A DNA stretch of 64,000 bases from an uncultured Chloroflexia bacterium (GCA_963726245.1 CAVSBT010000015.1:192001-256000); one strand, 5' to 3'; numbered from the stretch's first letter, positions 29,746 to 57,789 are shown. Notes: a model not told the origin generated them from the letters alone. A program made the numbers and translations.

Positions 29746-29773
29746 TAAACAATGGGGGCGCTCCGGTCGATTA
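29746..29773 (+). promoter_or_regulatory. sigma28 (FliA/WhiG)-like promoter for the GGDEF gene
   Basis: TAAA-N16-GTCGATTA versus consensus TAAA-N15/16-GCCGATAA. Confidence 0.5.
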
Positions 29774-29807
29774 TGTATTGGGCAGGCCCATTTGGGAGAA
29801 AGCTCAC

Positions 29808-30677
29808 GTGCCGCTAGGTAATCCCCGGCGCCCGGATGCGCGTAGCCGCTGGCGGGCAGCCCTGGACAAGGACGACACCCGCGCAGGGCAAGGTACGCCT
29901 GTGCGGGGCAACCACGCTCAGATCGTGGCCCCATCTTCCGGACCTCCTGCGAAGGGCCTCTTGACCTTAGAAAGGGTTCTGGCCTTCGGTGTCTTGGCCT
30001 GGACGCTGGGCATCATACTCGCCATCTTCAACCAGGCGGACCAGCTCTCCCGGACTTCGGTCATCGGCGTTCTCCTGCTTCTGGGGCTCCTGGCCTTTAT
30101 CGCGGCGCTGGTGCTGATTGTGCCGCGGGTGCGGCCGGCAACGACCGAGCATGTCCTTGTGGAGGCCGCGGTCTGCGACCCGTTGACCGGCCTACCCAAC
30201 GAACGCTACCTTCTGCTGCGCCTTGAAGAAGAGATGGCACGGGCGCATCGAGATGAACGCCCGCTTGCCCTGGCAGTTATCGATATCAATGGCCTGGCGG
30301 TGATAAACGAGCAGCACGGTCGGGACTCCGGCGACGAGGTGCTCCGCCACGTAGCCAGAGTGTTGGAGTCGACCAAGCGAGCGTCTGACATCGTCGCCCG
30401 CCTGGGCGATGACGAGTTCGCTGTCATCCTCTCCGAATGCACGAACGAAGGAGCCCAGGCCTTTGTGCACCGGCTGACGGAGCGCCTGGCGAAGGAGCCC
30501 GCGGGCGCGCTCATCGAGGGCCGTCCTTCTCACATCTGGGTTGGAGTCTGCGCCGGGCTGGCCGACATGTGGCCGGATCAGGAGGCGCCGGCGAATTTCC
30601 TCGACCGTGCCCGAGCTGCTCTTGCCGACGACCGTGAAGAGCGCGAGCATCGACGTCACCTGTGGCGGACGGCGTAG
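29808..30677 (+). CDS. Membrane-anchored GGDEF-domain protein (GDDEF variant with RxxD I-site)
   Basis: Two TM helices, DPLTGLPN, GDEVL, RASDIVARLGDDEF; GTG start after gggagaaag. Confidence 0.88.
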   Translation: MPLGNPRRPDARSRWRAALDKDDTRAGQGTPVRGNHAQIVAPSSGPPAKGLLTLERVLAFGVLAWTLGIILAIFNQADQLSRTSVIGVLLLLGLLAFIAALVLIVPRVRPATTEHVLVEAAVCDPLTGLPNERYLLLRLEEEMARAHRDERPLALAVIDINGLAVINEQHGRDSGDEVLRHVARVLESTKRASDIVARLGDDEFAVILSECTNEGAQAFVHRLTERLAKEPAGALIEGRPSHIWVGVCAGLADMWPDQEAPANFLDRARAALADDREEREHRRHLWRTA

Positions 30678-30713
30678 CTGACACACATCCCATCCCCTTA
30701 GCACCTCAGGACT

Positions 30714-31247
30714 TCAACTTGCGGCGGCCTTTGTGCGCTCTCGTTCCCTGGTGACGGGATACTGCGCCCTCGCGCGCTGCACGACCCGGCCGATGCCTAC
30801 GAGCAGCGCTAGCGTTGCCTGGGCCTCTCGATCACCCCGGGACCGCGCGGCGGATCGCTCTTGGCCGGGGAACGCTGCCAGTCGCCCGAGAACCTCGCGG
30901 TGGGCGGCGCGTACCGAACGGCGGGCCTGCGGGTGCCGCGGCGCCCAGGCCCAGAGGTCCACTAGCAGGGCGCTCGTAACGTGACGCCGCGCGACGTCCG
31001 CGGCGGCGCGCGCTGGCAGACTCATCTCGCGCCGCAGCTCCTCCAGAGCCGCCTCCTGGAACACGGCCTCCTTGCTCGGGAAGTGATGATAGAAGCCGCC
31101 CTTTGAGACACCGGCCGCCCGGCAGATGTCGTCGACCGTCACAAAGCCAAAGCCCCGCAAGAGGAAGAGCGCCTTAGCAGCTTTGAGTAGCCTGGCGCGA
31201 GTCTGGCTGCCCCGCGAGGCCGGAACGAGGTGGCGGCGAACGTCCAT
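30714..31247 (-). CDS. TetR/AcrR family regulator
   Basis: TRARLLKAA...TVDDICRAAGVSKGGFYHHFPSKE HTH. Confidence 0.88.
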   Translation of the reverse strand: MDVRRHLVPASRGSQTRARLLKAAKALFLLRGFGFVTVDDICRAAGVSKGGFYHHFPSKEAVFQEAALEELRREMSLPARAAADVARRHVTSALLVDLWAWAPRHPQARRSVRAAHREVLGRLAAFPGQERSAARSRGDREAQATLALLVGIGRVVQRARAQYPVTRERERTKAAAS

Positions 31248-31393
31248 CACAGGATGTATCGTCGAAAAGCGGCGTGATCTGAAGCTGCGCACGTAGCACG
31301 GGGCGCCTGACGACGGGCCGGGAACGTTGCCTGAGGTTCTGGTTAGGGTAGCTTCAAACCTAGGGAAAACCCGCACTTAGCCGCGCAGAAGCC

Positions 31394-31446
31394 TTGACAA
31401 GCGAGACATAAGGGCCATAATACATACCGACGAGTCGGTATGTATT
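31394..31446 (+). promoter_or_regulatory. sigma70-type promoter overlapped by a perfect 28-bp TetR-type operator
   Basis: TTGACA(31394)-N16-CATAAT(31416); aatacataccgac-ga-gtcggtatgtatt at 31419-31446. Confidence 0.8.
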
Positions 31447-31512
31447 GGTGAGACGGACGGTAACGTAGGAAACCAAAGCACTAAGGGAACGGTTCAACCC
31501 GGAGGAGAAACG

Positions 31513-31611
31513 GTGAAAAAGAGACTGGGCCTTGCTCTCGTGGCCCTGGTTGCGTTGGTCATTGTGGCCGCGCAGCAGGCCCCGGTTCTGCTTTGGCGAG
31601 CGTGGGGTTAG
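31513..31611 (+). CDS. Unannotated 32-aa hydrophobic peptide MKKRLGLALVALVALVIVAAQQAPVLLWRAWG
   Basis: GGAGGAG RBS, GTG start, TAG stop, dedicated promoter upstream and terminator downstream; basic N-terminus and hydrophobic core. Confidence 0.75.
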   Translation: MKKRLGLALVALVALVIVAAQQAPVLLWRAWG

Positions 31612-31794
31612 CCCGTCGGCTAAGCAGGGCCGCATAGTCCTGAAGACTGGCTAATAGCGCCCCTGTCGACGCTGGTCCTGGCTAGCGTTGACAGGGCCTA
31701 GCCTACCGACTCATCAGGCCGCAAGCCACGCTAGCTCGGCGGGCGGGGCCGAGGTAGCGCGGTGTTGAGGCGACTGAACCTTCTGTCTCGCTGA

Positions 31795-31828
31795 GGAAAC
31801 GCCTCTGCCCACAGGGGCGTTTTCCTTT
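31795..31828 (+). terminator. Intrinsic terminator closing the peptide transcript, possibly bidirectional
   Basis: aaacgcctctg-ccca-caggggcgttt followed by tccttt; the G-U pair favours the plus strand. Confidence 0.7.
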
Positions 31829-31836
31829 GGCCCTGC

Positions 31837-33321
31837 TCACGCTGCCCGCCGCCTCTCCCCAGCCATGGCCTTCTCCTTGGACTCCCGCTGCACCCACTCG
31901 TCGTAGGCCTCCAGAAACGCCTCCACCACCTGGGGGTCGAACTGGGCGCCGCTATGCTTCACGATCTCGTCGTGAGCGGCCTCCCAGGGCAGGGCGCGCC
32001 GGTAGGGCCGGTCCGAGGTCATGGCGTCGAACGTGTCCGCCACGGCGAATATGCGGGCCCCAAGCGGTATGTCCTCGCCGGCCAGCGCGCGGGGGTATCC
32101 CTTGCCGTCGAAGCGCTCGTGGTGGCTGAGGACGACCTCGGCGGGGCCGCTCAGGAAGTGCACCCCCTTCAGCATCTCGTGCGCGATGGCGGGGTGGCGC
32201 CGCATCTCGTCCCACTCCTCGGGGGTGAGGGGCCCCGGCTTGTGAAGGATGAAGTCGGAGACGCCGATCTTGCCCACGTCATGGAGAAGGGCGGCCCGCT
32301 TCAGGTCCTCCCAGGCGAGTGTGTCCGGCTGGAACCCCACGCGGCGGGCGATGTCCATGGTGTACTCCATGACGCGGGTGGAGTGGCCCTTGGTCTCCCG
32401 GTCCCGGGCGTCCAGGGCGGTGACTAGCGCCTCCAGCGTGCCGTCATAGGTGTTTTTCAGCGTCTCCGTCATCTCCAGGATCTCGCGGTTAGCCTTCTCG
32501 AGATCCTCGTTCTTGCGCCGGAGGGCTACCACCGTCTCGGTAGTCCGTCCAACGTACTGCTTGATGGACAGTTGCATCATGATGGGCGGCGCCGCGAAGA
32601 CCAGGAGGCCGGTGACGCCGAGGGCGCGGTAGGCCATAGCCAGGGCCAGCCCGAGTAGGCCGAAGACCACGTAATGAGGCAAGATCCAGCGGTCCTTCTC
32701 CAGCCAGACGTCGAGCAGCGGGCGGCCGGTGGTCAGGCTCACGACCTGGTCCACCAAGTAGACGTTCACCCCGTAGGCCACGCCGGCCGCCACGAGGGCC
32801 GCTGGCAGCATGATGGGTCGTAGATCATCGCGTCCGCTGCCCGCCATGGCCTCGAAGGTGACGGCGGCGAGCGTGATAGCGATAGTGAGGTTCCCGACAT
32901 CAAAGGGCAGTCGGATGCTGAAGAAGTTGCGAGGTATGTGCCAGGCCACAATCGCGGTGGGCACGGCTATGACCACCCCGGCTGGGCCGTAGAGGACAGC
33001 CGCCGCGAAGGCAGGTATGAAGCTTACTGATAGGCGGGACTCGCCGTAGATGGGGACGGCAAGGCGGTCTGCAAGAATCGCCAAAAGGGTGAGGAGGGCC
33101 AACCCCGGGGCGTCGGAGGGGTCGAAGTGTGGGGCGTACCAGGCGATGAGCCCCACGCCGGCGGCGCTGACGGCGCCTATGTAGAGGCGGGCCGGCCAGC
33201 TCAGCGGCGGCTGGTCACGCTGCTGCTCAGCCTGCGCGTTGGCGGCCTTGCGGCGCAGAGGACGGGGCTCGGACCCCACTCCCTTGGCGCCCATAGCCCC
33301 AGGCCCTTTATCCAAGCCCAT
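31837..33321 (-). CDS. HD-GYP c-di-GMP phosphodiesterase with multi-pass (about 6-7 TM) membrane sensor domain
   Basis: Hydrophobic N-terminal half, coiled coil, TKGHSTRV, LLHDVGKI, HHERFDGKGYP, ADTFDAMTSDRPYR. Confidence 0.93.
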   Translation of the reverse strand: MGLDKGPGAMGAKGVGSEPRPLRRKAANAQAEQQRDQPPLSWPARLYIGAVSAAGVGLIAWYAPHFDPSDAPGLALLTLLAILADRLAVPIYGESRLSVSFIPAFAAAVLYGPAGVVIAVPTAIVAWHIPRNFFSIRLPFDVGNLTIAITLAAVTFEAMAGSGRDDLRPIMLPAALVAAGVAYGVNVYLVDQVVSLTTGRPLLDVWLEKDRWILPHYVVFGLLGLALAMAYRALGVTGLLVFAAPPIMMQLSIKQYVGRTTETVVALRRKNEDLEKANREILEMTETLKNTYDGTLEALVTALDARDRETKGHSTRVMEYTMDIARRVGFQPDTLAWEDLKRAALLHDVGKIGVSDFILHKPGPLTPEEWDEMRRHPAIAHEMLKGVHFLSGPAEVVLSHHERFDGKGYPRALAGEDIPLGARIFAVADTFDAMTSDRPYRRALPWEAAHDEIVKHSGAQFDPQVVEAFLEAYDEWVQRESKEKAMAGERRRAA

Positions 33322-33422
33322 AGGGTATGCGCCTAATTCCCTAGCGCCCGGGTCGGGCGGTCGTCCTGGTCACCGGAAGCGACGCCCATCTCGGGACATC
33401 GCTGCCGAGGGTGTCCTAGTAA

Positions 33423-33449
33423 TTATCGGTAGGGTACCCGCTTCATGTA
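33423..33449 (-). promoter_or_regulatory. sigma28-like promoter for the HD-GYP gene
   Basis: Minus-strand TACA-N15-ACCGATAA. Confidence 0.55.
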
Positions 33450-33543
33450 GGGCGCAACGGCGTCTGGGCCGCGACTCTGACGGCAGGATCGGGGCCCTTG
33501 TGCCGGGATTCTTCTCGAACGATGGCTCACAGGAGGCTGAGGC

Positions 33544-34266
33544 TCAGGCGACCTCCTCCAGGGCGGGCTCCAGCCGGTGGCGCAGGGAAGCCAGGATCTT
33601 CTTGTGAAGCTGGCATATGCGCGACTCCGAGAGCCCCATCAGCGCCCCGATCTCGTGGAAGGGCATGGACTGCCCGTAGCGCATATAGAGGATGGAGCGC
33701 TCCCGTGACGACAGGGTGCCCATGGCGTCCTTCAAGAGACCCAGCGTGGCCCGGTGTTCCGTCGCCGTTGCCGGGTTGCCGAACTCGTCTTCATCGGCGG
33801 GATCCCAGATCAGGCCGGGATTGTCCGGTCGATCCTCCAGGCACTGCTCCAGGGAGACGACTTTGGAGCTTGAGCGAGAGCGGAGGACGTGCAGCTCGTC
33901 CAGGCTTAGGCCGAGGCGCAGCGCGATCTCCTTGTTGGTCGGCCAGCGTCCCAGTTGACAGGCCAGCTCCTGGGAGCCCTGTTCCAGCTCGCGGGCGCTG
34001 CGGCGCACAGAGCGAGGCAGGACGTCCTGCTTGCGGATCGCGTCAAGGATGGAGCCCCGTATGCGTCGCACCGCGAAGCTAGCGAAGCTGGTGCCGCGCT
34101 CGGGGTCAAAGCTGTCGACGGCTTGGATGAGCCCCTCGGTGCCATAGGCCATGGCATCATCTCGATCCAGGCCGTTTCTATTGCTCGTCTCCGATGACAT
34201 CCTGCCGACGACAAAGGCCACCAGCGGCATGTGACGTATGATCATCGCGTCTCGTTCTATCACCAT
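33544..34266 (-). CDS. FliA/WhiG family RNA polymerase sigma factor
   Basis: GLIQAVDSFDPERG, FAVRRIRGSILDAIRKQD, LGRWPT, EIGALMGLSESRICQLH; ATG after ggagg. Confidence 0.92.
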   Translation of the reverse strand: MVIERDAMIIRHMPLVAFVVGRMSSETSNRNGLDRDDAMAYGTEGLIQAVDSFDPERGTSFASFAVRRIRGSILDAIRKQDVLPRSVRRSARELEQGSQELACQLGRWPTNKEIALRLGLSLDELHVLRSRSSSKVVSLEQCLEDRPDNPGLIWDPADEDEFGNPATATEHRATLGLLKDAMGTLSSRERSILYMRYGQSMPFHEIGALMGLSESRICQLHKKILASLRHRLEPALEEVA

Positions 34267-34293
34267 CTCGCGCCTCCGGGTCGTCCGAGCGGC

Positions 34294-34328
34294 AAACAAG
34301 AGCCGCCTTCGGAATGACCGACGGCGGC
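34294..34328 (-). terminator. Riboswitch expression-platform terminator before the sigma gene
   Basis: Minus-strand gccgccgtcgg-tcatt-ccgaaggcggc followed by tcttgttt. Confidence 0.65.
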
Positions 34329-34396
34329 AAACCCGTGCCTGATCTCCCTGGCGGTGTGGCGCTAGAGGCGATGATCCTTTCGCCAGTACTATGGCC

Positions 34397-34495
34397 TTCG
34401 GTAGCCCGGCTGCCCTGGCTCCACCGTCCGTGGCGGAGGGAGCCTTAGGTCCGCGGCTTTGCGCCCCCCTCTTTCGAAGGGTTTGCCTTTGTCGG
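34397..34495 (-). ncRNA. c-di-GMP-I (GEMM) riboswitch
   Basis: Minus-strand aGGCAAACccttcGAAAgagggggGCGCAAAGCCgcggacCTAAgg...GGCAGCCGGGCTACCGaa matches the GEMM consensus including GAAA tetraloop and receptor. Confidence 0.92.
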
Positions 34496-34926
34496 TGCCT
34501 CTCTCTGTTGTCTCGCGGGTGGGTGGCCTATCGACCGTTGCGGCCACTCGCCGAACCCCTTCGAACTTCCAAACGCATCGTAACTTCTTGTGTAACGTGT
34601 TGGGGTGGCCTCGCCGGTAACGGTTTGGTGAAGGCTGCGTCGACCGCTGTCTAGTCGGATACGGCCGGCACGCCTGGCTGCTAATACCATGCTCTGCTAT
34701 CCTGATCTGTGGGGTGGATGGGACGCTTCGGGCCCTGGCCTGGCTCCCTGCGAGCCTTTCGCCGGCGCGGCATAGGGCGCTACAGAGACCATCGATGGGC
34801 GCGTCCCTAGGTCGTGGCCGGCGTGCGGCTGCTGAGGCAGGGTCCTTTCTTCGCAATCCTTCCACGCGAGCCAATCCGACCCTGTAAGAGGCCCTGCGGC
34901 TGGTCGACAACTACTCAGAGGGTGCT

Positions 34927-35622
34927 GTGAGGAGAGAACCTCTCACCAGGCAGGTGCAGAAGCAGCAGACGCGGGCTCTGCTCGTCAATGCTGCGCTGCG
35001 TGTCTTCGCCGAGCATGGCTACGAAGCGGCTACGGTGGAGGAGATCTCCGCCGCGGCCGGCTACTCCAAGGGGGCCTTCTACTTTCACTTCGGCAGCAAG
35101 GAAGACATCTTCTTGGAACTGCTGAAGCAGTGGACCGGCGAGCAGAGGGAGCGCCTGACAGCTTTCGACGACGCCACGCCGGCGGCAGCCGCTCTCTTGG
35201 AGGGCCTGGAGAGCTTCCTCTCCTACGAGGAGCGCGAGATTGTCTGGCCACGCCTGCTGGTGGAGTTCTGGGCTCAGGCCCGGCACCAAGAGGCCATCCG
35301 CCGTGGTCTGGGTCAGGCCTACGCAGCCTGGCGCCGGCTTCTGGCGCAGGCCTTCCGTCGCGCCGGCGACGCCGGGCTTCTCTCGCCGCAGTTCGAGCCG
35401 GACGACGCCGCTCGGCTGGTCCTGTCCACCCACGATGGGCTGGTTGTGGAGGCCTGCATCGACCCCGCGGCTGCCGGGAAGGTCTCTCTGCGGCGGGTGC
35501 TGGGTGCCCTGCTCGCCTATCTAGCCTCGCCCGCCGCCAAGGAGCTGCCTGAGGCGGCCCGACCGCTGGCTACAAAGAAGTCCGCGGCTGGGGCCCGCCG
35601 CTCTCGATCCTCCGCCGCCTGA
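34927..35622 (+). CDS. TetR/AcrR family regulator
   Basis: TRALLVNAALRVF...TVEEISAAAGYSKGAFYFHFGSKE. Confidence 0.92.
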   Translation: MRREPLTRQVQKQQTRALLVNAALRVFAEHGYEAATVEEISAAAGYSKGAFYFHFGSKEDIFLELLKQWTGEQRERLTAFDDATPAAAALLEGLESFLSYEEREIVWPRLLVEFWAQARHQEAIRRGLGQAYAAWRRLLAQAFRRAGDAGLLSPQFEPDDAARLVLSTHDGLVVEACIDPAAAGKVSLRRVLGALLAYLASPAAKELPEAARPLATKKSAAGARRSRSSAA

Positions 35623-47141: not shown

Positions 47142-48008
47142 CTAGGCGAAACGCTTCAGGTAGGCCTCCAGGTTGAACTCGCTCACCTCCTCCACGAACT
47201 CCCGCGAGCGCTGATCGAACGGCTCTCTGGACTCGTCGCGGTAGAAGAGGCCGAGGTGCACGCGCTCTTCGGTAAGGGCCAGGTGAAGCGCTGCCGCCAG
47301 GTCCGAGGTATCGTGCCCGGGCGGCATCTCGTCCACTGCCTCGTCGTAGTGGTTGTAGGTGTTGTGGAACTCGGTGCAGGGGCTCTGGACGTGGATGAAC
47401 GAGAAGCCGTGGTGCCGGATACCCTGCACAATGAGCTCAGACATCTCCTGTGGCCGGGCCGAGTAGCCGCGGCCGACGAAGGTGGCGCCGTAGGACAGCG
47501 CCAGCATCACGGGCTTGAATGGCCTGGCGATTGAGCCGAAGGGCGTCGACTTGGAGATGTGCCCTGTCGCCGACGTGGGCGAGGCCTGGGCCTTGGTGAG
47601 GCCGTAGGTCTGGTTGTCCATCATGATGACGGTGATGTCCACGTTGCGGGCCGCCGCGTGCGGCAGGTGTCCGGCGCCGATGCTCATGAGGTCGCCGTCG
47701 CCGCCCATTGCCAGCACCGTCAGCGCCGGGTTGGCCAGCTTGACGCCGGTGGCGATGGGCAGAGGCCGGCCGTGGACTCCGTGGATGCCGTAGGTGCGCA
47801 TGAAGTAGGGGGTGCGGCTGGAGCAGCCGATCCCCGACACCACGACAACCTCGTGCGGCTTCAGTTGAAGCGTGGTCAGGGCCTTGTAGGTGGCGCTGAG
47901 CACGCCGAAGTCGCCGCAGCCGGGGCACCACACCGGCTTGACACCGCTCTTGTAGTCTTTGACCTCCAGCAGGACGTCCTGCTCTTCGAGGGCTGTATCA
48001 ATGGTCAT
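47142..48008 (-). CDS. korB: 2-oxoacid:ferredoxin oxidoreductase beta subunit
   Basis: WCPGCGDF, SGIGCS, HGRPLP, GGDGD, YGLTKAQASPT. Confidence 0.9.
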   Translation of the reverse strand: MTIDTALEEQDVLLEVKDYKSGVKPVWCPGCGDFGVLSATYKALTTLQLKPHEVVVVSGIGCSSRTPYFMRTYGIHGVHGRPLPIATGVKLANPALTVLAMGGDGDLMSIGAGHLPHAAARNVDITVIMMDNQTYGLTKAQASPTSATGHISKSTPFGSIARPFKPVMLALSYGATFVGRGYSARPQEMSELIVQGIRHHGFSFIHVQSPCTEFHNTYNHYDEAVDEMPPGHDTSDLAAALHLALTEERVHLGLFYRDESREPFDQRSREFVEEVSEFNLEAYLKRFA

Positions 48009-49722
48009 GATTGAGAACCTCTTCGACCTTGCGGAAGATCTCCCCCGGCATGAAGGGGAGGCCGCCGTACTTGTTGAGGGGTATGGGCTTGAATCCGAAG
48101 GTGGCCGCCAGGTGATGGGCCATCTGCCCCTGGTAGTTCACCTCGGGCACGATGACGTGCTCCACCGAGTCGATGAAGGCCCCCAGTTCCTTTTCTGGCA
48201 GCGGATTAAGAACCCGCGGGTGCAAGGCAGCCACCTCGTAGCCGGCCGCCAGCGCCCGGTCGACGGCCTCGCGGATGGCGCCCTCTGTGGCGCCCCAGCC
48301 GATGATGCCGACCTTCGGGTTGTCGGAGCCGTAGCGGGGTACGGGCCCCAGCTCAGACTGGAGAGTCGTCAGCTTCCGGAAGCGCTTCTGGGTCATCAGC
48401 TCGTGGACAGCGGGCTCCTGGCTCGGGTGGCCCGACTCGCCGTGCTCCAGGCCCGGCGCCACGTAGGCGCCCTCGACATCCATCCCTGGCAGAGCCACGG
48501 GGGAGACGCCGCTCTCCGTTTCCCGGAAGCGCCAATAGGGCTCCGGGTCGCCCCCCTGAGGTCGCGCCCGGTCGACCACGGTGAGCGGACTTAGGTCGGG
48601 CATCTGGAGGGACTCAGTGCGATGGGACAGCGACTGGTCGGAGAGGAAGATGACCGGCATCTGGTACTGCTCCGCCATGTTGAAGGCATCCACGATCTCG
48701 AAGAGGCAGTCTTGGACCGAGCCCGGCGCTACGACGATGCGGGGGAAGTCGCCGTGGCCGGCGAACAGTGCATGGTACAGGTCGCCCTGCTCCAGCTTGG
48801 TCGGCATGCCCGTGCTGGGGCCGGCCCGCTGGGCATCCACGATGACGACGGGGATCTCGGCCATGGAGGCAAGACCCATCAGCTCCGTCATCAAAGAGAA
48901 GCCGGGCCCGGAGGTAGCGGTCATCGCCTTCGTGCCCGTGAACGATGCCCCCAGGCAAGAGGCCAGGGATGCCATCTCATCCTCGCCCTGAAGGAAGATC
49001 CCTCCAAGCTTGGGTAGCTCCCGGGCCATCGTCTCCAGGATCTCGGAGGCGGGTGTGATGGGGTAGCCGGCGTAAAAGCGACAGCCCGCGTGCAGCGCGC
49101 CGGCCACGATGGCATCGTTGCCGCTCATGACCAACCGGCTTACATTGTCGCTGGTCCCCAGGTAGTATCCGTCTTCCTTGCGGATCTGCCGCGTGTACTC
49201 GTAGCCGTATTGGAGGGCCTCCAGGTTCTTGGAAAGCAGCTCGGCGCGGCGCTTGAGGCGGCCGCGCACCAGGTCTTCCAGAGAGGCGGGGTCCAGGCCG
49301 AAGAGGCCTGCCATGATCCCCAGCGTCAGTACGTTCTTGCCCCGCTGGAAGTCCAGCTTCTCGCGGGCGATGCGCTGAAGGGGCACCGGGTACCTGATGC
49401 GGCCGTTGGTCTCGCCAACGTCAACACGGTCCGGGTCGTAGATGACCACTCCGTGCTCGTTGACGTCCCCGATGTGCCTTTGATAGGCCTCGTTGTCGAA
49501 GGCGATGAGGACATCGACGCCGTCCCCAATCGAGAGGACCGGCTTCTCGCTGACGCGGATCTGGTACCAGGCGTGTCCGCCCTTGATCTCGGCCGGGTAG
49601 GTGCGGAAGGTAAAGACGTGGAATCCGGTGCGGGCAGCGCCGCTGGTGAACATGTCGCCGGCGCTGATGACGCCTTCGCCACCCTCGCCGCCGATCCTGA
49701 TGATGATATCGTTCTTAGCCAT
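47998..49722 (-). CDS. korA: 2-oxoacid:ferredoxin oxidoreductase alpha(gamma) subunit
   Basis: GGEGGEGV, AEIKGG, YPITPASE, TSGPG, QRAGPSTGMPT. Confidence 0.9.
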   Translation of the reverse strand: MAKNDIIIRIGGEGGEGVISAGDMFTSGAARTGFHVFTFRTYPAEIKGGHAWYQIRVSEKPVLSIGDGVDVLIAFDNEAYQRHIGDVNEHGVVIYDPDRVDVGETNGRIRYPVPLQRIAREKLDFQRGKNVLTLGIMAGLFGLDPASLEDLVRGRLKRRAELLSKNLEALQYGYEYTRQIRKEDGYYLGTSDNVSRLVMSGNDAIVAGALHAGCRFYAGYPITPASEILETMARELPKLGGIFLQGEDEMASLASCLGASFTGTKAMTATSGPGFSLMTELMGLASMAEIPVVIVDAQRAGPSTGMPTKLEQGDLYHALFAGHGDFPRIVVAPGSVQDCLFEIVDAFNMAEQYQMPVIFLSDQSLSHRTESLQMPDLSPLTVVDRARPQGGDPEPYWRFRETESGVSPVALPGMDVEGAYVAPGLEHGESGHPSQEPAVHELMTQKRFRKLTTLQSELGPVPRYGSDNPKVGIIGWGATEGAIREAVDRALAAGYEVAALHPRVLNPLPEKELGAFIDSVEHVIVPEVNYQGQMAHHLAATFGFKPIPLNKYGGLPFMPGEIFRKVEEVLNHDH

Positions 49723-50000
49723 TCTAGGCTCTTCGCTCAGAAGTATCGGCGTCTCCGCCGGGAAGCTTTAGCAGCAACAAAGCTTCTTTATTCAATTCTA
49801 CCACCAAGGCCAAGTGATGGTAAGTGTGAAGCAGGCTCCACGCGGCCCCACAGAAGAAGGGCACACTTCAATTCTAGCACGTTCGGCGTCCGGTTCCCAC
49901 GTTGACGGCGGGTCTGGGACGGTATACTAGATAGTAGGCCGTCGAAAGAGGTATCGCAGAGCAAGGCAAGATACGGCGCTGGCAGGGAAGGAGACTCGAC

Positions 50001-53756: not shown

Positions 53757-54056
53757 GAGCCGCCTCCAGGGTGCTGGGCGGGCACGATCCCGCCTGTGAC
53801 AAGTGAAAACGAAGGCGGCGTTGACCTGTTACAGTTCAGAATGGCGTAGCGCCGCCTGCCTGTCAAGCGCGTGACGAGCGGAGAAGGCGCCGCGCGCGGC
53901 GGCGGGCGTCAGCCAGCGCGTCGGACTGGGCGCGGGGCGCCGGCGCAGCGAGGAACCCCCGCAGTTCCCGGTCTCGCGCCTGGCTGGCGGAGCGGTTGAA
54001 GGATCGCCTTTGCAGAGCTAACATGGGCCGACAGGCCTTAGCCGAAGGGGGAAGAA

Positions 54057-55545: not shown

Positions 55546-57789
55546 GTGATGAGAGGGATGTGGCGACGCCTAGTGGCCCCCTGCAAAGTCCTTAGCCTGA
55601 GGTCATTCCGAGGGCGGTCCATTCTGGCAGGTCTCGCGCTACTCCTGCTATTGGCAGGTGTGGCAGGAGTGGCTCTCTGGCGCGCTCAAAGCGAGCAAAG
55701 CGCACGCCGCTCACTGGAGCGGAGGGCCCTCGCACTCGCCTCTCTCGAGAGTGCCCGCGCTCAGCTCTTTCTTTCGGCCACGTTCACTGCCATTGCAGTA
55801 TTCGCAGACGACCCCGCGCCGCTCGTCGACCAGTATCGGCAAGGTCACATTTCGGTCACCAAGGACATACAGGATGCTCGAGACAAGCTGCTTGCCGCCG
55901 GAGGGCCGGATGAGGCCGCCCCACTGGATGCGGCGGCCGGAGAGGTGGAACAGCTTCTGGGAGAAGCAGACGCAGTCATGGCCTCTTTCCTCACTTCGAG
56001 CAGGGAGGCAAGGTTAGCGACAGCGCAACAAACCCAGGAGAAGCTCTGGCCTCCGGCCGCAGGAGTGATCGCCGAGCTGGAGCAACTGGCGCAGGAACAA
56101 GAGGCCATGCTGTCCGCCGAGCGAGCGGCGGTGGACCGCACCTCAGACTCTACCCTTGGGCTGTTGATCGGGTTTAGCGCGTTTGCCTTCTTGACAGCGT
56201 CTCTGGCACTCCTCACGCTCCTTCGCTCGGTGACACGCCCGCTCGCCGAGCTTCGATCGCGGGCCAGAGAGATCACGTCAGGGAACCTCGAGGCCAGAGT
56301 TAACGTGTCCGGCCCAGAGGAGGTAGCTTCCCTGGCGCACGACTTCAATGAGATGACGGAGACCCTGCTCGACAGGACGGCGCGGCTCCAGAAATCCGAG
56401 CGTCGGTTCCGCGATGTCCTGGAGGTCTCCCGCGACCTGATCTACAAGTTGAACCTGCAAACCCGCACCTACGACTACGTCAGCCCATCCGCTGTCCAGC
56501 TACTGGGCTTCACGCCCGAAGAGATCACTGCGATGGGCGTTGAGGGAGTCAAGGAGAGGTTCCATCCTGACGACAGGAAGAGGCTCCGGCCATCCCCGCG
56601 CGACCTGCCGGATGACGCTCCTGAGGGCCGCATGGCCGCGACAATTGAGTACCGGTTCAAGCGCAGGGACGGAGAGTACCGCTGGTACAGCGATGACCGC
56701 GCCTTCGTACGCGCCGAGGATGGGACGCTGCTGGCTTTGGTGGGGACAGTCCGCGACATCACCAACCGCAAGGCAGCGGAGGATGCCCTGCGCGAGAGCG
56801 AGGAGAAGTTCCGCGTTCTCAGTGCCTCGGCGCCCATCGGCATCTTCTCAACGGACGCCGAGGGCAAGTTCATCTACGCCAACGAGCACTTGCTTGGCAC
56901 ATTTGGGTTGCGGCCCGAAGAACTACTGGGGCGGAGCTGGATCAAGAACATTCATCCGGATGACCGCCAAGCGACAGTCGAGCAGTCGCTGAAGGCAGGG
57001 CGTGAAAAGCGTACGTTCTCCTGGGAATACCGCATCTTGAGGGCAGGGGGAGAAGTACGCTGGGTTCGCACAGTGGCGAGTCCAATACTATCCAGAGACG
57101 GTAGTCCCGCGAGCTATGTGGGCGCCGGTGAGGATATCACTGAGGAAAAGCGGATCGAAGAGGACAAGCAGAGGGCCTTTGAGAACACGGTGATGCTGCT
57201 GGCGGTGGCCGCTGAAGCCCGCGACCCCTACACAGAGAGCCACCTGCTCAGGATCAGAGGCTTCTCAGAGGCGATAGCACTGGAACTGGGACTCAGCCGT
57301 CAGGAGGCTAGAGAAATAGGTCTTGGCTCGCTCCTCCACGATGTCGGCAAGATGCGAGTGCCGGACCCCATCCTTGCCAAGCCGGGGCCGCTCACGGCCG
57401 AGGAGTGGGAGATCATCAAGCAGCACCCCATATGGGGCCAGGACCTGCTGTCGTTGCAGCCCTCGCTGGAGACCGCTCGCCAGATCGCCCGCTGGCACCA
57501 CGAGAACTGGGATGGGACAGGATACCCGGACGGCCTGCGCGGCGAAGAGATACCCATCGGGGCCGCTGTCACCGCCGTCGCCGACTCATTCGACGCTATG
57601 ACGACCGAGCGGCCCTACAAGGACGCCTGGCCGCCAACACGCGCCGTCAAAGAGATCAGGCAGGGCAAAGGCCGGCGATACTCTCCCACGGTCGTGGAAG
57701 CGTTCGACCGCGCGCTGCGGAAGGGTGAGATCGAGAGAGTCGCGATGGCCAGCCCTCCCAGCATCTCAGACCTCGTCAAGGCCGCCTGA
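55546..57789 (+). CDS. Membrane sensor HAMP-PAS-PAS-HD-GYP phosphodiesterase
   Basis: Two TM, HAMP (EVASLAHDFNEM), two PAS/PAC (HPDDR), LLHDVGK, HHENWDGTGYP, FDAMTTERPYK. Confidence 0.92.
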   Translation: MMRGMWRRLVAPCKVLSLRSFRGRSILAGLALLLLLAGVAGVALWRAQSEQSARRSLERRALALASLESARAQLFLSATFTAIAVFADDPAPLVDQYRQGHISVTKDIQDARDKLLAAGGPDEAAPLDAAAGEVEQLLGEADAVMASFLTSSREARLATAQQTQEKLWPPAAGVIAELEQLAQEQEAMLSAERAAVDRTSDSTLGLLIGFSAFAFLTASLALLTLLRSVTRPLAELRSRAREITSGNLEARVNVSGPEEVASLAHDFNEMTETLLDRTARLQKSERRFRDVLEVSRDLIYKLNLQTRTYDYVSPSAVQLLGFTPEEITAMGVEGVKERFHPDDRKRLRPSPRDLPDDAPEGRMAATIEYRFKRRDGEYRWYSDDRAFVRAEDGTLLALVGTVRDITNRKAAEDALRESEEKFRVLSASAPIGIFSTDAEGKFIYANEHLLGTFGLRPEELLGRSWIKNIHPDDRQATVEQSLKAGREKRTFSWEYRILRAGGEVRWVRTVASPILSRDGSPASYVGAGEDITEEKRIEEDKQRAFENTVMLLAVAAEARDPYTESHLLRIRGFSEAIALELGLSRQEAREIGLGSLLHDVGKMRVPDPILAKPGPLTAEEWEIIKQHPIWGQDLLSLQPSLETARQIARWHHENWDGTGYPDGLRGEEIPIGAAVTAVADSFDAMTTERPYKDAWPPTRAVKEIRQGKGRRYSPTVVEAFDRALRKGEIERVAMASPPSISDLVKAA

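Follow-up and report, generated by a model that had tools for sequence, protein, structure and literature searches.

The 64,000-nucleotide stretch of DNA analysed here (the window) comes from an uncultured Chloroflexia bacterium (GCA_963726245.1, CAVSBT010000015.1:192001-256000) and carries, between positions 29746 and 35622, a compact set of genes centred on a FliA/WhiG-family sigma factor, which we call sigmaA, whose gene is preceded by a cyclic di-GMP (c-di-GMP) class I riboswitch aptamer and followed by the gene for a membrane HD-GYP protein. The original prediction had read this region as a closed signalling loop that joins c-di-GMP turnover, a sigma28-type sigma factor and a small peptide, and every element that it listed was found in the window, in the order it gave, by open reading frame (ORF) listing and by Pfam, NCBIfam and Rfam searches. 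The window forms part of a 320-kb contig in a genome bin of 2.68 Mb with 66.6% G+C, 83% completeness and 6% contamination. Our comparison set comprises 41 genomes, namely the window's own genome (G000) and 40 relatives distributed over five families (f1-f5); synteny was assessed in the loci of 20 relatives, each 13-20 kb long. The conserved core consists of a divergent TetR gene, a promoter of the extracytoplasmic function (ECF) type, a c-di-GMP-I aptamer with a terminator, sigmaA, a sigma28-type promoter, and the membrane HD-GYP gene.

Layout and conservation of the cassette

The sigmaA gene occupies positions 33544-34266 of the minus strand and encodes 240 residues, starting at an ATG at 34266 behind a GGAGG Shine-Dalgarno sequence at 34277-34273. 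The protein scores 189.7 bits on TIGR02479 against a cut-off of 189.6, a very small margin, and contains the r2, r3, and r4 regions of Pfam; the solved structures closest to it are the WhiG chains 6pfv/6pfj, followed by Escherichia coli FliA (6pmi). Its leader, on the same strand, lies behind an ECF-type promoter at 34596-34571 (GTTACA at 34596-34591, N15, CGTTT at 34575-34571), which stands 74 nt upstream of the c-di-GMP-I (GEMM-I) aptamer at 34396-34496, and the aptamer is followed by an intrinsic terminator at 34328-34294. On the other side of sigmaA, a sigma28-type promoter (33449-33423, minus strand, TACA-N15-ACCGATAA) precedes the membrane HD-GYP gene (31837-33321, minus strand, start at 33294 or 33321; HD_5, 129 bits). 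The HD-GYP protein retains intact HD (residue 338), HHE (391), and GYP (399) motifs and has at least five hydrophobic segments. Its N-terminal part matches no Pfam domain and gave MASE9-like clusters at 0.89 in the atlas, a lead only. Divergent from sigmaA, on the plus strand, lies TetR2 (34927-35622, start at 34927 or 34954), in which Pfam identifies a BetI-type C-terminal domain.

Orthologues of sigmaA, 53-88% identical to it, are present in 38 of the 41 genomes searched and were not found in G013, G024, and G038. By comparison of coordinates, 32 of these 38 genomes have the aptamer upstream of sigmaA at a distance of less than 250 nt, and they make up the full set of sigmaA-bearing genomes in families f1, f3, f4, and f5. 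The HD-GYP gene sits directly downstream of sigmaA in 18 of the 20 relatives' loci, with a partial copy in one more and none in L039. A TetR gene diverges from sigmaA in 14 of the 20 loci, and a TetR-like gene follows HD-GYP in nine. The synteny check that the original prediction had proposed thus bears out the link between a c-di-GMP aptamer, a WhiG/FliA-type sigma factor, and an HD-GYP protein, and extends it across an order-level group.

The aptamer and its leader

A whole-genome search with the c-di-GMP-I model, also proposed beforehand, matched the window's aptamer at 75.4 bits (RF01051), against a gathering score of 35. The c-di-GMP-I-GGC variant model, RF03167, likewise exceeded its gathering score at the same place, with 67 against 59. 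At the middle contact position, the window RNA and 18 relatives have CGCAAAGC where the RF03167 consensus has CGCGAAGC, and we file the aptamer as canonical class I for this reason; the variant class was rejected, the diagnostic base being A where the variant model has G. The "GGC" of the variant's name presumably denotes a G that replaces the middle contact A. GGCAAAC, CGCAAAGC, and ACCGAAG are invariant across 19 aptamers and would suit G, A, and C at the contact positions, which we take to be G20, A47, and C92, as numbered in Vc2 rather than on the window's aptamer. In an alignment of 54 aptamers, fitted to the model, 94.9% of cells are paired and double changes occur in 12 of 21 pairs; none of 500 shuffles equals these values, and slid controls reach 29-53%.

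Of 51 unique leaders, 44 carry the motif GT[TA]A[CT]N-N15/16-CGTT[TAG] ahead of the aptamer, at a distance of 59-104 nt, whereas 1 of 1,020 shuffles does. Promoters read by ECF sigma factors generally combine an AAC element with a CGT element.

Between aptamer and gene, the terminator has its stem at 34328-34302, with a hairpin energy of -20.7 kcal/mol, and runs into a U-rich tract at 34301-34294 (CUUGUUUG). A strong terminator is present in 32 of the 51 unique leaders. The 5′ half of the window's aptamer (CACCGAC AAA GGCAAACCC, 34497-34479) is complementary to a downstream segment, GGGUUUGCC GCC GUCGGU (34334-34317, minus strand), which overlaps the 5′ arm of the terminator and would serve as the anti-terminator strand. 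This duplex has an energy of -28.3 kcal/mol, compared with -15.1 kcal/mol for shuffles, none of 200 of which matches it; in 19 of the 32 terminator-bearing leaders, the corresponding duplex is stronger than 95% or more of the shuffles. L053 shows one compensatory change, ACCGAU pairing there with AUCGGU. When the anti-terminator helix is enforced, the window's leader folds at -108.3 kcal/mol, within 0.3 kcal/mol of its minimum free energy (MFE) of -108.6. A value of -79.6 kcal/mol for a fold constrained to contain both aptamer and terminator reflects hand-set pairs and is given no weight.

Switches of the c-di-GMP-I class are known in both ON and OFF types. The window has the two components of an OFF design, a terminator and an alternative helix formed by aptamer sequence and the terminator's 5′ arm. 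Because the 5′ half of the aptamer is complementary to that arm, we infer an OFF switch similar to the Cd1 riboswitch of C. difficile, in which high c-di-GMP would mean less sigmaA.

The genome holds other aptamers of the class. Of two that lie at G000:C15:316357-316445 and G000:C30:103485-103560 (genome, contig, positions), one precedes the gene for a canonical membrane GGDEF cyclase and the other that for a secreted Pro/Thr-repeat protein. A further aptamer at G000:C25:108932-109045, with a weaker match about 200 nt further down the RNA (L004:1187-1337), possibly forms a tandem upstream of the gene for a C-terminally anchored surface protein with Pro/Thr repeats. Judged by coordinates, single or paired aptamers occur 3-9 kb from a TadZ gene in at least 10 relatives.

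Sigma28-type promoters and the genes behind them

Both sigma28-like promoters sit where the original prediction had put them, one ahead of the HD-GYP gene and one at 29746-29773 on the plus strand, ahead of a membrane GGDEF gene (TAAA-N16-GTCGATTA, two mismatches in the consensus scan), and they exceed what chance would give. Between sigmaA and HD-GYP, the spacer of the window has a single YCGATA box, and so does that of each of the 18 relatives' loci counted (19/19), family f2 included; the count omits L039, which has no HD-GYP, and L044, where it is partial. The usual forms of this box are GCCGATAA/T/C, with cTAcA 15-16 nt upstream. Such conserved boxes adjoining its gene suggest that sigmaA may read promoters of the form TAAA-N15-GCCGATAA. 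The genome encodes a second FliA/WhiG paralogue, sigmaB (G000:C38:45878-46666), which shares 36% identity with sigmaA. Both retain the RIRG...PRS and SESR..Q segments, which correspond to WhiG regions 2.4 and 4.2 by alignment.

A genome-wide motif scan, another of the checks that had been suggested, used TAAA-N15/16-GCCGATAA with at most two mismatches, intergenic and within 250 nt of a gene, following a published recipe (PMC8325347). It returned 38 rows (about 30 sites), against 2-14 in 20 shuffled-motif controls. The GCCGATAA 8-mer by itself is weakly enriched, with 26 non-coding matches where permutations gave a median of 13 and a 95th percentile of 31. The genes behind the sites, those of a more permissive list included, encode GAF-GGDEF, GAF-HD-GYP, and HAMP-GGDEF-HD-GYP proteins, three further GGDEF proteins, a giant PAS-GGDEF-GAF-HD-GYP protein, a GAFx3-GGDEF protein, and, among others, CsrA, a regulator of the OmpR type, and a TadZ-like protein. 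Of 26 c-di-GMP genes, 9 have a strict -10 core in the 250 nt upstream, compared with 84 of 2,391 genes overall (Fisher p = 1e-7). Across the order, a box precedes csrA in 28 of 30 loci, and the HD-GYP and csrA promoter sets show no clear difference from each other. Sigma28-type promoters thus stand before c-di-GMP turnover genes far more often than before other genes, in support of the original prediction; either sigmaA or its paralogue sigmaB may read them.

Autoregulation of sigmaA through a sigma28 box was rejected, as only 1 of 51 leaders has one upstream of the aptamer. Since sigmaA has an ECF-type promoter and no sigma28 box before it, the loop would close only through c-di-GMP levels.

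The best sigma28-type match of the window lies outside the cassette, at 49743-49770 on the minus strand (TAAA-N16-GCCGATAC, one mismatch), 21 nt upstream of a pyruvate:ferredoxin-oxidoreductase-like gene (47998-49722). The window also contains a second HD_5/HD-GYP gene, at 55669-57789 on the plus strand (about 706 residues), without an upstream sigma28 box.

The membrane GGDEF gene had been taken to make the c-di-GMP of the loop. Position 29746, where the original prediction began the region, belongs to the promoter and not to the gene, whose most likely start is a GTG at 29808; the gene then runs from 29808 to 30677 on the plus strand and encodes 289 residues with two transmembrane segments (Pfam GGDEF, 109 bits). 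This GTG and its GGAG Shine-Dalgarno sequence are conserved in the sister species, the only other genome with this GGDEF gene, where the promoter reads TAAA-N15-GCCGATGA and lies exactly where the two genomes start to align. The protein contains RASDIVARLGDDEF, and its motif is RASD-x5-GDDEF, or RTSD-x5-ADDEF in the sister species, so that the GG[DE]EF active site is lost while the RxxD site five residues upstream of the motif is kept. Other positions are altered too, with NER for the NRR, GL for the FK, and GR for the GH of active cyclases; the riboswitch-controlled GGDEF protein elsewhere in this genome has the canonical motif. Considering the degenerate active site, c-di-GMP synthesis is unlikely, and the protein is likely a degenerate, I-site-bearing c-di-GMP receptor rather than a cyclase.

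The first TetR-family gene, TetR1, lies on the minus strand at 30714-31376 (start at 31250 or 31376; TetR_N, 63 bits). Adjoining it at 31419-31446 is an inverted repeat, a candidate TetR1 operator, whose perfect 13-nt arms stand 2 nt apart and whose sequence is unchanged in the sister species. Downstream of the repeat, an ORF of 32 codons on the plus strand (31513-31611) has a GGAGG Shine-Dalgarno sequence and a product with a KKR N-terminus and one hydrophobic helix; it matched no family. In the sister species 25 of its 32 residues are kept, with four synonymous and seven non-synonymous codon differences. Among the 20 loci, this ORF (by tblastn) and the GGDEF gene are found only in L029, which is of the same genus.

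The full proposal of the original prediction, in which an active membrane diguanylate cyclase and the 32-residue peptide signal to HD-GYP, draws on the adjacency of these genes in the window and on a peptide ORF that has a ribosome-binding sequence and is kept in the sister species. We consider it very improbable: both species have a degenerate GGDEF active site, the genes for the peptide and the GGDEF protein accompany the cassette in one of the 20 relatives' loci while HD-GYP occurs order-wide without them, and the peptide gene lies beside the operator-like palindrome next to TetR1, with nothing to tie it to HD-GYP. What survives of the closed loop is the aptamer-gated sigma factor and the boxes before c-di-GMP genes; the active cyclase and the peptide input drop out.

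The non-coding stretch from the end of the 32-residue ORF to the 3′ end of HD-GYP (31611-31830) is about 85% identical to that of the sister species, equal to the flanking genes, and contains several inverted repeats and a terminator-like hairpin at 31797-31822.

The predicted circuit and its relation to known systems

The regulatory cassette, of which the window has one copy, recurs throughout an order-level group of uncultured Dehalococcoidia (Chloroflexota); its sequence elements, their conservation, and their complementarity are what the analysis shows. That it works, as a whole, as a loop gated by an OFF riboswitch has in our estimate a probability of roughly 60%; ligand binding, the OFF direction, the reading of the boxes by the sigma factor, and the enzyme activities are inferred parts of this model. 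In it, the ECF-type promoter would start a transcript whose leader consists of the c-di-GMP-I aptamer and then the intrinsic terminator. With the ligand absent, the 5′ half of the aptamer would pair with the 5′ arm of the terminator, and polymerase would read into sigmaA; with c-di-GMP bound, the aptamer would keep its own 5′ half, the terminator would form, and sigmaA would not be made. SigmaA, or its paralogue sigmaB, would read promoters of the TAAA/GCCGATAA type. These stand before the adjacent HD-GYP, csrA, and about one in three GGDEF/HD-GYP genes of the genome, and the closest genomes also have one before a Tad pilus gene; the GGDEF receptor of the window would be under the same promoter type. 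Because the adjacent target, HD-GYP, would degrade c-di-GMP, the core would amount to a double-negative, hence positive, feedback loop, which could lock cells in a low-c-di-GMP state.

The observations that weigh against this reading concern the gene calls, the leaders, the output, the choice of sigma factor, and family f2. The calls that underlie the genome statistics are rough calls of our own (2414 genes, 78% of the genome covered). A look for RNA sequencing runs that contain window positions 31300-35000 listed none, and the DNA runs listed all share less than 0.4 of the sequence words. As for the leaders, the unconstrained MFE structure of RNAfold for the window has the terminator formed and no native aptamer. 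In 13 of the 32 terminator-bearing leaders, the anti-terminator duplex fails the 5% mark, those of f4 type being mostly no better than shuffles. Moreover, 19 of the 51 leaders have no clear terminator and carry hairpins that abut the Shine-Dalgarno sequence; these may act on translation, and the mechanism may thus differ between families. The same leaders lend some weight to the alternative that the riboswitch is an ON switch or a translational one, through which c-di-GMP would raise sigmaA and the circuit would be one of negative feedback and homeostasis instead of bistability. We judge this alternative unlikely: in the window and in leaders of the f1/f3 type, the aptamer-complementary segment overlaps the 5′ arm of the terminator, so that the ligand-free state is the one that would prevent termination, and the terminator stands alone, without borrowing the 3′ strand of P1 as an ON design would need.

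On the output side, no conserved structural target emerged. A box before TadZ is convincing in 3 of 30 loci, those of the three closest genomes, and order-wide sigma28 control of Tad was rejected, any box at all being present in 8 of 30 loci against 8 of 90 control segments. Sigma28 control of archaellin was rejected as well, with a box within 220 nt upstream in 0 of 28 loci, for which reason the single two-mismatch match before archaellin in this genome (GCCGAAAA) is not trusted. Given these counts for TadZ and archaellin, the regulon that can be defended as conserved comprises HD-GYP and csrA, together with a large part of the c-di-GMP enzymes in the case of this genome.

The choice of sigma factor is complicated by sigmaB, which is present in nearly all genomes and could read the same promoters. 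Were the boxes read by this more canonical paralogue, c-di-GMP would still gate a sigmaA of other specificity, and the HD-GYP loop would bypass sigmaA. Such an arrangement gains from the scores of sigmaB, which exceed those of sigmaA on TIGR02479 (199.9 against 189.7 bits) and on WhiG and FliA models, as well as from its position about 1 kb from csrA (G000:C38:47769-48062), a linkage that recurs in relatives by coordinates and joins it to the gene whose box is kept so widely. Set against these points, the HD-GYP box lies directly downstream of sigmaA in all 19 spacers, f2 too, the region 2.4 and 4.2 segments are common to both sigma factors, and no clear difference separates the HD-GYP from the csrA promoters. 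We regard the bypass of sigmaA as a real but rather unlikely possibility.

In family f2, sigmaA, the promoter, and HD-GYP are retained, but the c-di-GMP-I aptamer is missing. The six remaining sigmaA-bearing genomes of the 38 are all of this family and have no RF01051 match upstream of sigmaA; any c-di-GMP-I aptamer in the genome is found in two of seven f2 genomes, against 34 of 34 in the other families. At the aptamer-free loci an ECF-type promoter is nonetheless found 155-196 nt upstream of sigmaA (14/16), and the place of the aptamer is taken by another, undescribed structured leader (L045:9562-9664, L042:9554-9659, L043:9542-9653, L044:10364-10463, and nine further loci). In this f2 leader, the outermost pair of a P1 helix, GGAUGCGA/UCGCAUCC, covaries. 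A second, competing helix, which overlaps P1 by 3 nt, is 82.7% paired and shows double changes in five of nine pairs; none of 500 shuffles reaches its count of double-changed cells. It matches no Rfam family, even at E up to 10. A covariance model built from it finds one copy per genome, in six of the seven f2 genomes only and always before sigmaA. Replacement series of this kind, here a c-di-GMP-I aptamer against the f2 leader, have exposed new riboswitch classes before.

The flagellar role of the FliA/WhiG family has no counterpart here, no flagellar genes having been found in the 41 genomes. Their absence from the window, noted in the original prediction, extends to all 41 genomes for flagellin, FlhA, and FlgM (PF00669, PF00771, and PF04316; 0/41 each, with matches in control genomes). 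FliW was not found in the window's genome, which is 83% complete. In Bacillus subtilis, csrA (fliW-csrA) lies behind a SigD promoter, which is of the sigma28 type. The sigma28-type box before csrA in these bacteria resembles that arrangement, but flagellin, FlgM, and FliW were not found here, and csrA adjoins the second FliA/WhiG paralogue.

Two ways in which c-di-GMP controls WhiG/FliA-type sigma factors are known: one relies on a protein anti-sigma factor, and the other, an indirect one, on an aptamer placed before a long flagellar operon. The latter is exemplified by the Cd1 aptamer, at which c-di-GMP terminates the flgB-sigD operon transcript and lowers a FliA-type sigma factor and its regulon (PMC5386303). 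There as here, a class I aptamer is followed by a terminator, but the C. difficile sigma gene lies deep in a flagellar operon behind a sigmaA-type promoter. In the present cassette, the aptamer directly precedes a monocistronic WhiG-like sigma gene under an ECF-type promoter, there are no flagellar genes, and the first target is HD-GYP. The former is represented by RsiG-(c-di-GMP)-WhiG, which in Rubrobacter controls pili and has 5 of 12 mapped promoters before diguanylate cyclase or phosphodiesterase genes (PMC8325347). In Streptomyces and Rubrobacter, c-di-GMP restrains a WhiG-type sigma factor in non-flagellated bacteria, a likeness to the system considered here; the difference is that RsiG is a protein anti-sigma factor of Actinomycetota that acts after translation, whereas the Chloroflexota cassette, as read from its sequence, places an RNA sensor on transcription. 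The system works like Cd1 and RsiG-WhiG, yet is a distinct wiring in another phylum.

The present cassette has an aptamer placed directly on a stand-alone WhiG-like sigma gene, in all sigmaA-bearing genomes of four families. A literature search within one collection of papers found none that joins c-di-GMP, a riboswitch, and Dehalococcoidia, and, among the papers listed, no description of an aptamer upstream of whiG. With aptamer, sigma factor, promoter, and HD-GYP in about 2 kb, the circuit is compact enough to be testable in vitro or in a surrogate host.

Archaellin genes are present in 34 of the 41 genomes, and the window's genome has an archaellum-like cluster (G000:C9:10683-19417) with two archaellins, a FlaF/G-like protein, a KaiC-like ATPase, a T2SSE ATPase, and a 521-residue membrane protein, as well as a complete Tad/Flp pilus locus (G000:C25:113874-121797). 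Archaella in bacterial Chloroflexota have been published already, and the cluster here has the archaellin, FlaF/G-like, KaiC-like, and T2SSE content described in the main text of PMC12488501, which nowhere mentions c-di-GMP, FliA, a promoter, or a riboswitch. What sets the present case apart is that archaellin lacks sigma28 boxes and that three archaellum-related genes carry the ECF-type motif. The cassette offers a first handle on how c-di-GMP signalling is organised in bacterial carriers of the archaellum.

The motif in question, GTAAC-N15/16-CGTT, has 27 sites in the genome, 20 of them intergenic. One intergenic site precedes an ECF-type sigma gene (G000:C25:111668-112234) by 19 nt. Others precede sigmaA, the first gene of the archaellum cluster, two archaellin-like genes, and sortase, TetR, and glycosyltransferase genes, and one lies near the fourth aptamer. 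Such sites include C25:111623-111649, C9:10636-10661, C26:5498-5523, and C33:10364-10389 and, in the window, 34571-34596 and 53807-53832. Their distribution suggests that an ECF sigma factor may stand at the top of the cascade. A wider proposal, which we hold only tentatively and think rather improbable, combines two ideas: that the c-di-GMP-to-WhiG switch of Actinomycetota has been rebuilt in RNA, an OFF riboswitch on sigmaA and an HD-GYP driven by sigmaA making up a bistable double-negative loop below an ECF sigma factor that also drives archaellum-related genes, and that the f2 leader represents a riboswitch class of its own, with c-di-GMP or a related signal as its possible ligand. If true, it would describe a three-tier sigma cascade in a bacterium that swims with an archaeal motor.

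A separate leader precedes archaellin in family f1. It is a conserved element of about 115 nt with several G+C-rich hairpins and AAGGAGGGAG at its end, before the archaellin start codon, and could be a structured 5′ untranslated region or a CsrA target. It lies about 125 nt upstream of archaellin in L164, L167, L171, L173, L174, L176, L177, L178, L183, and L188.

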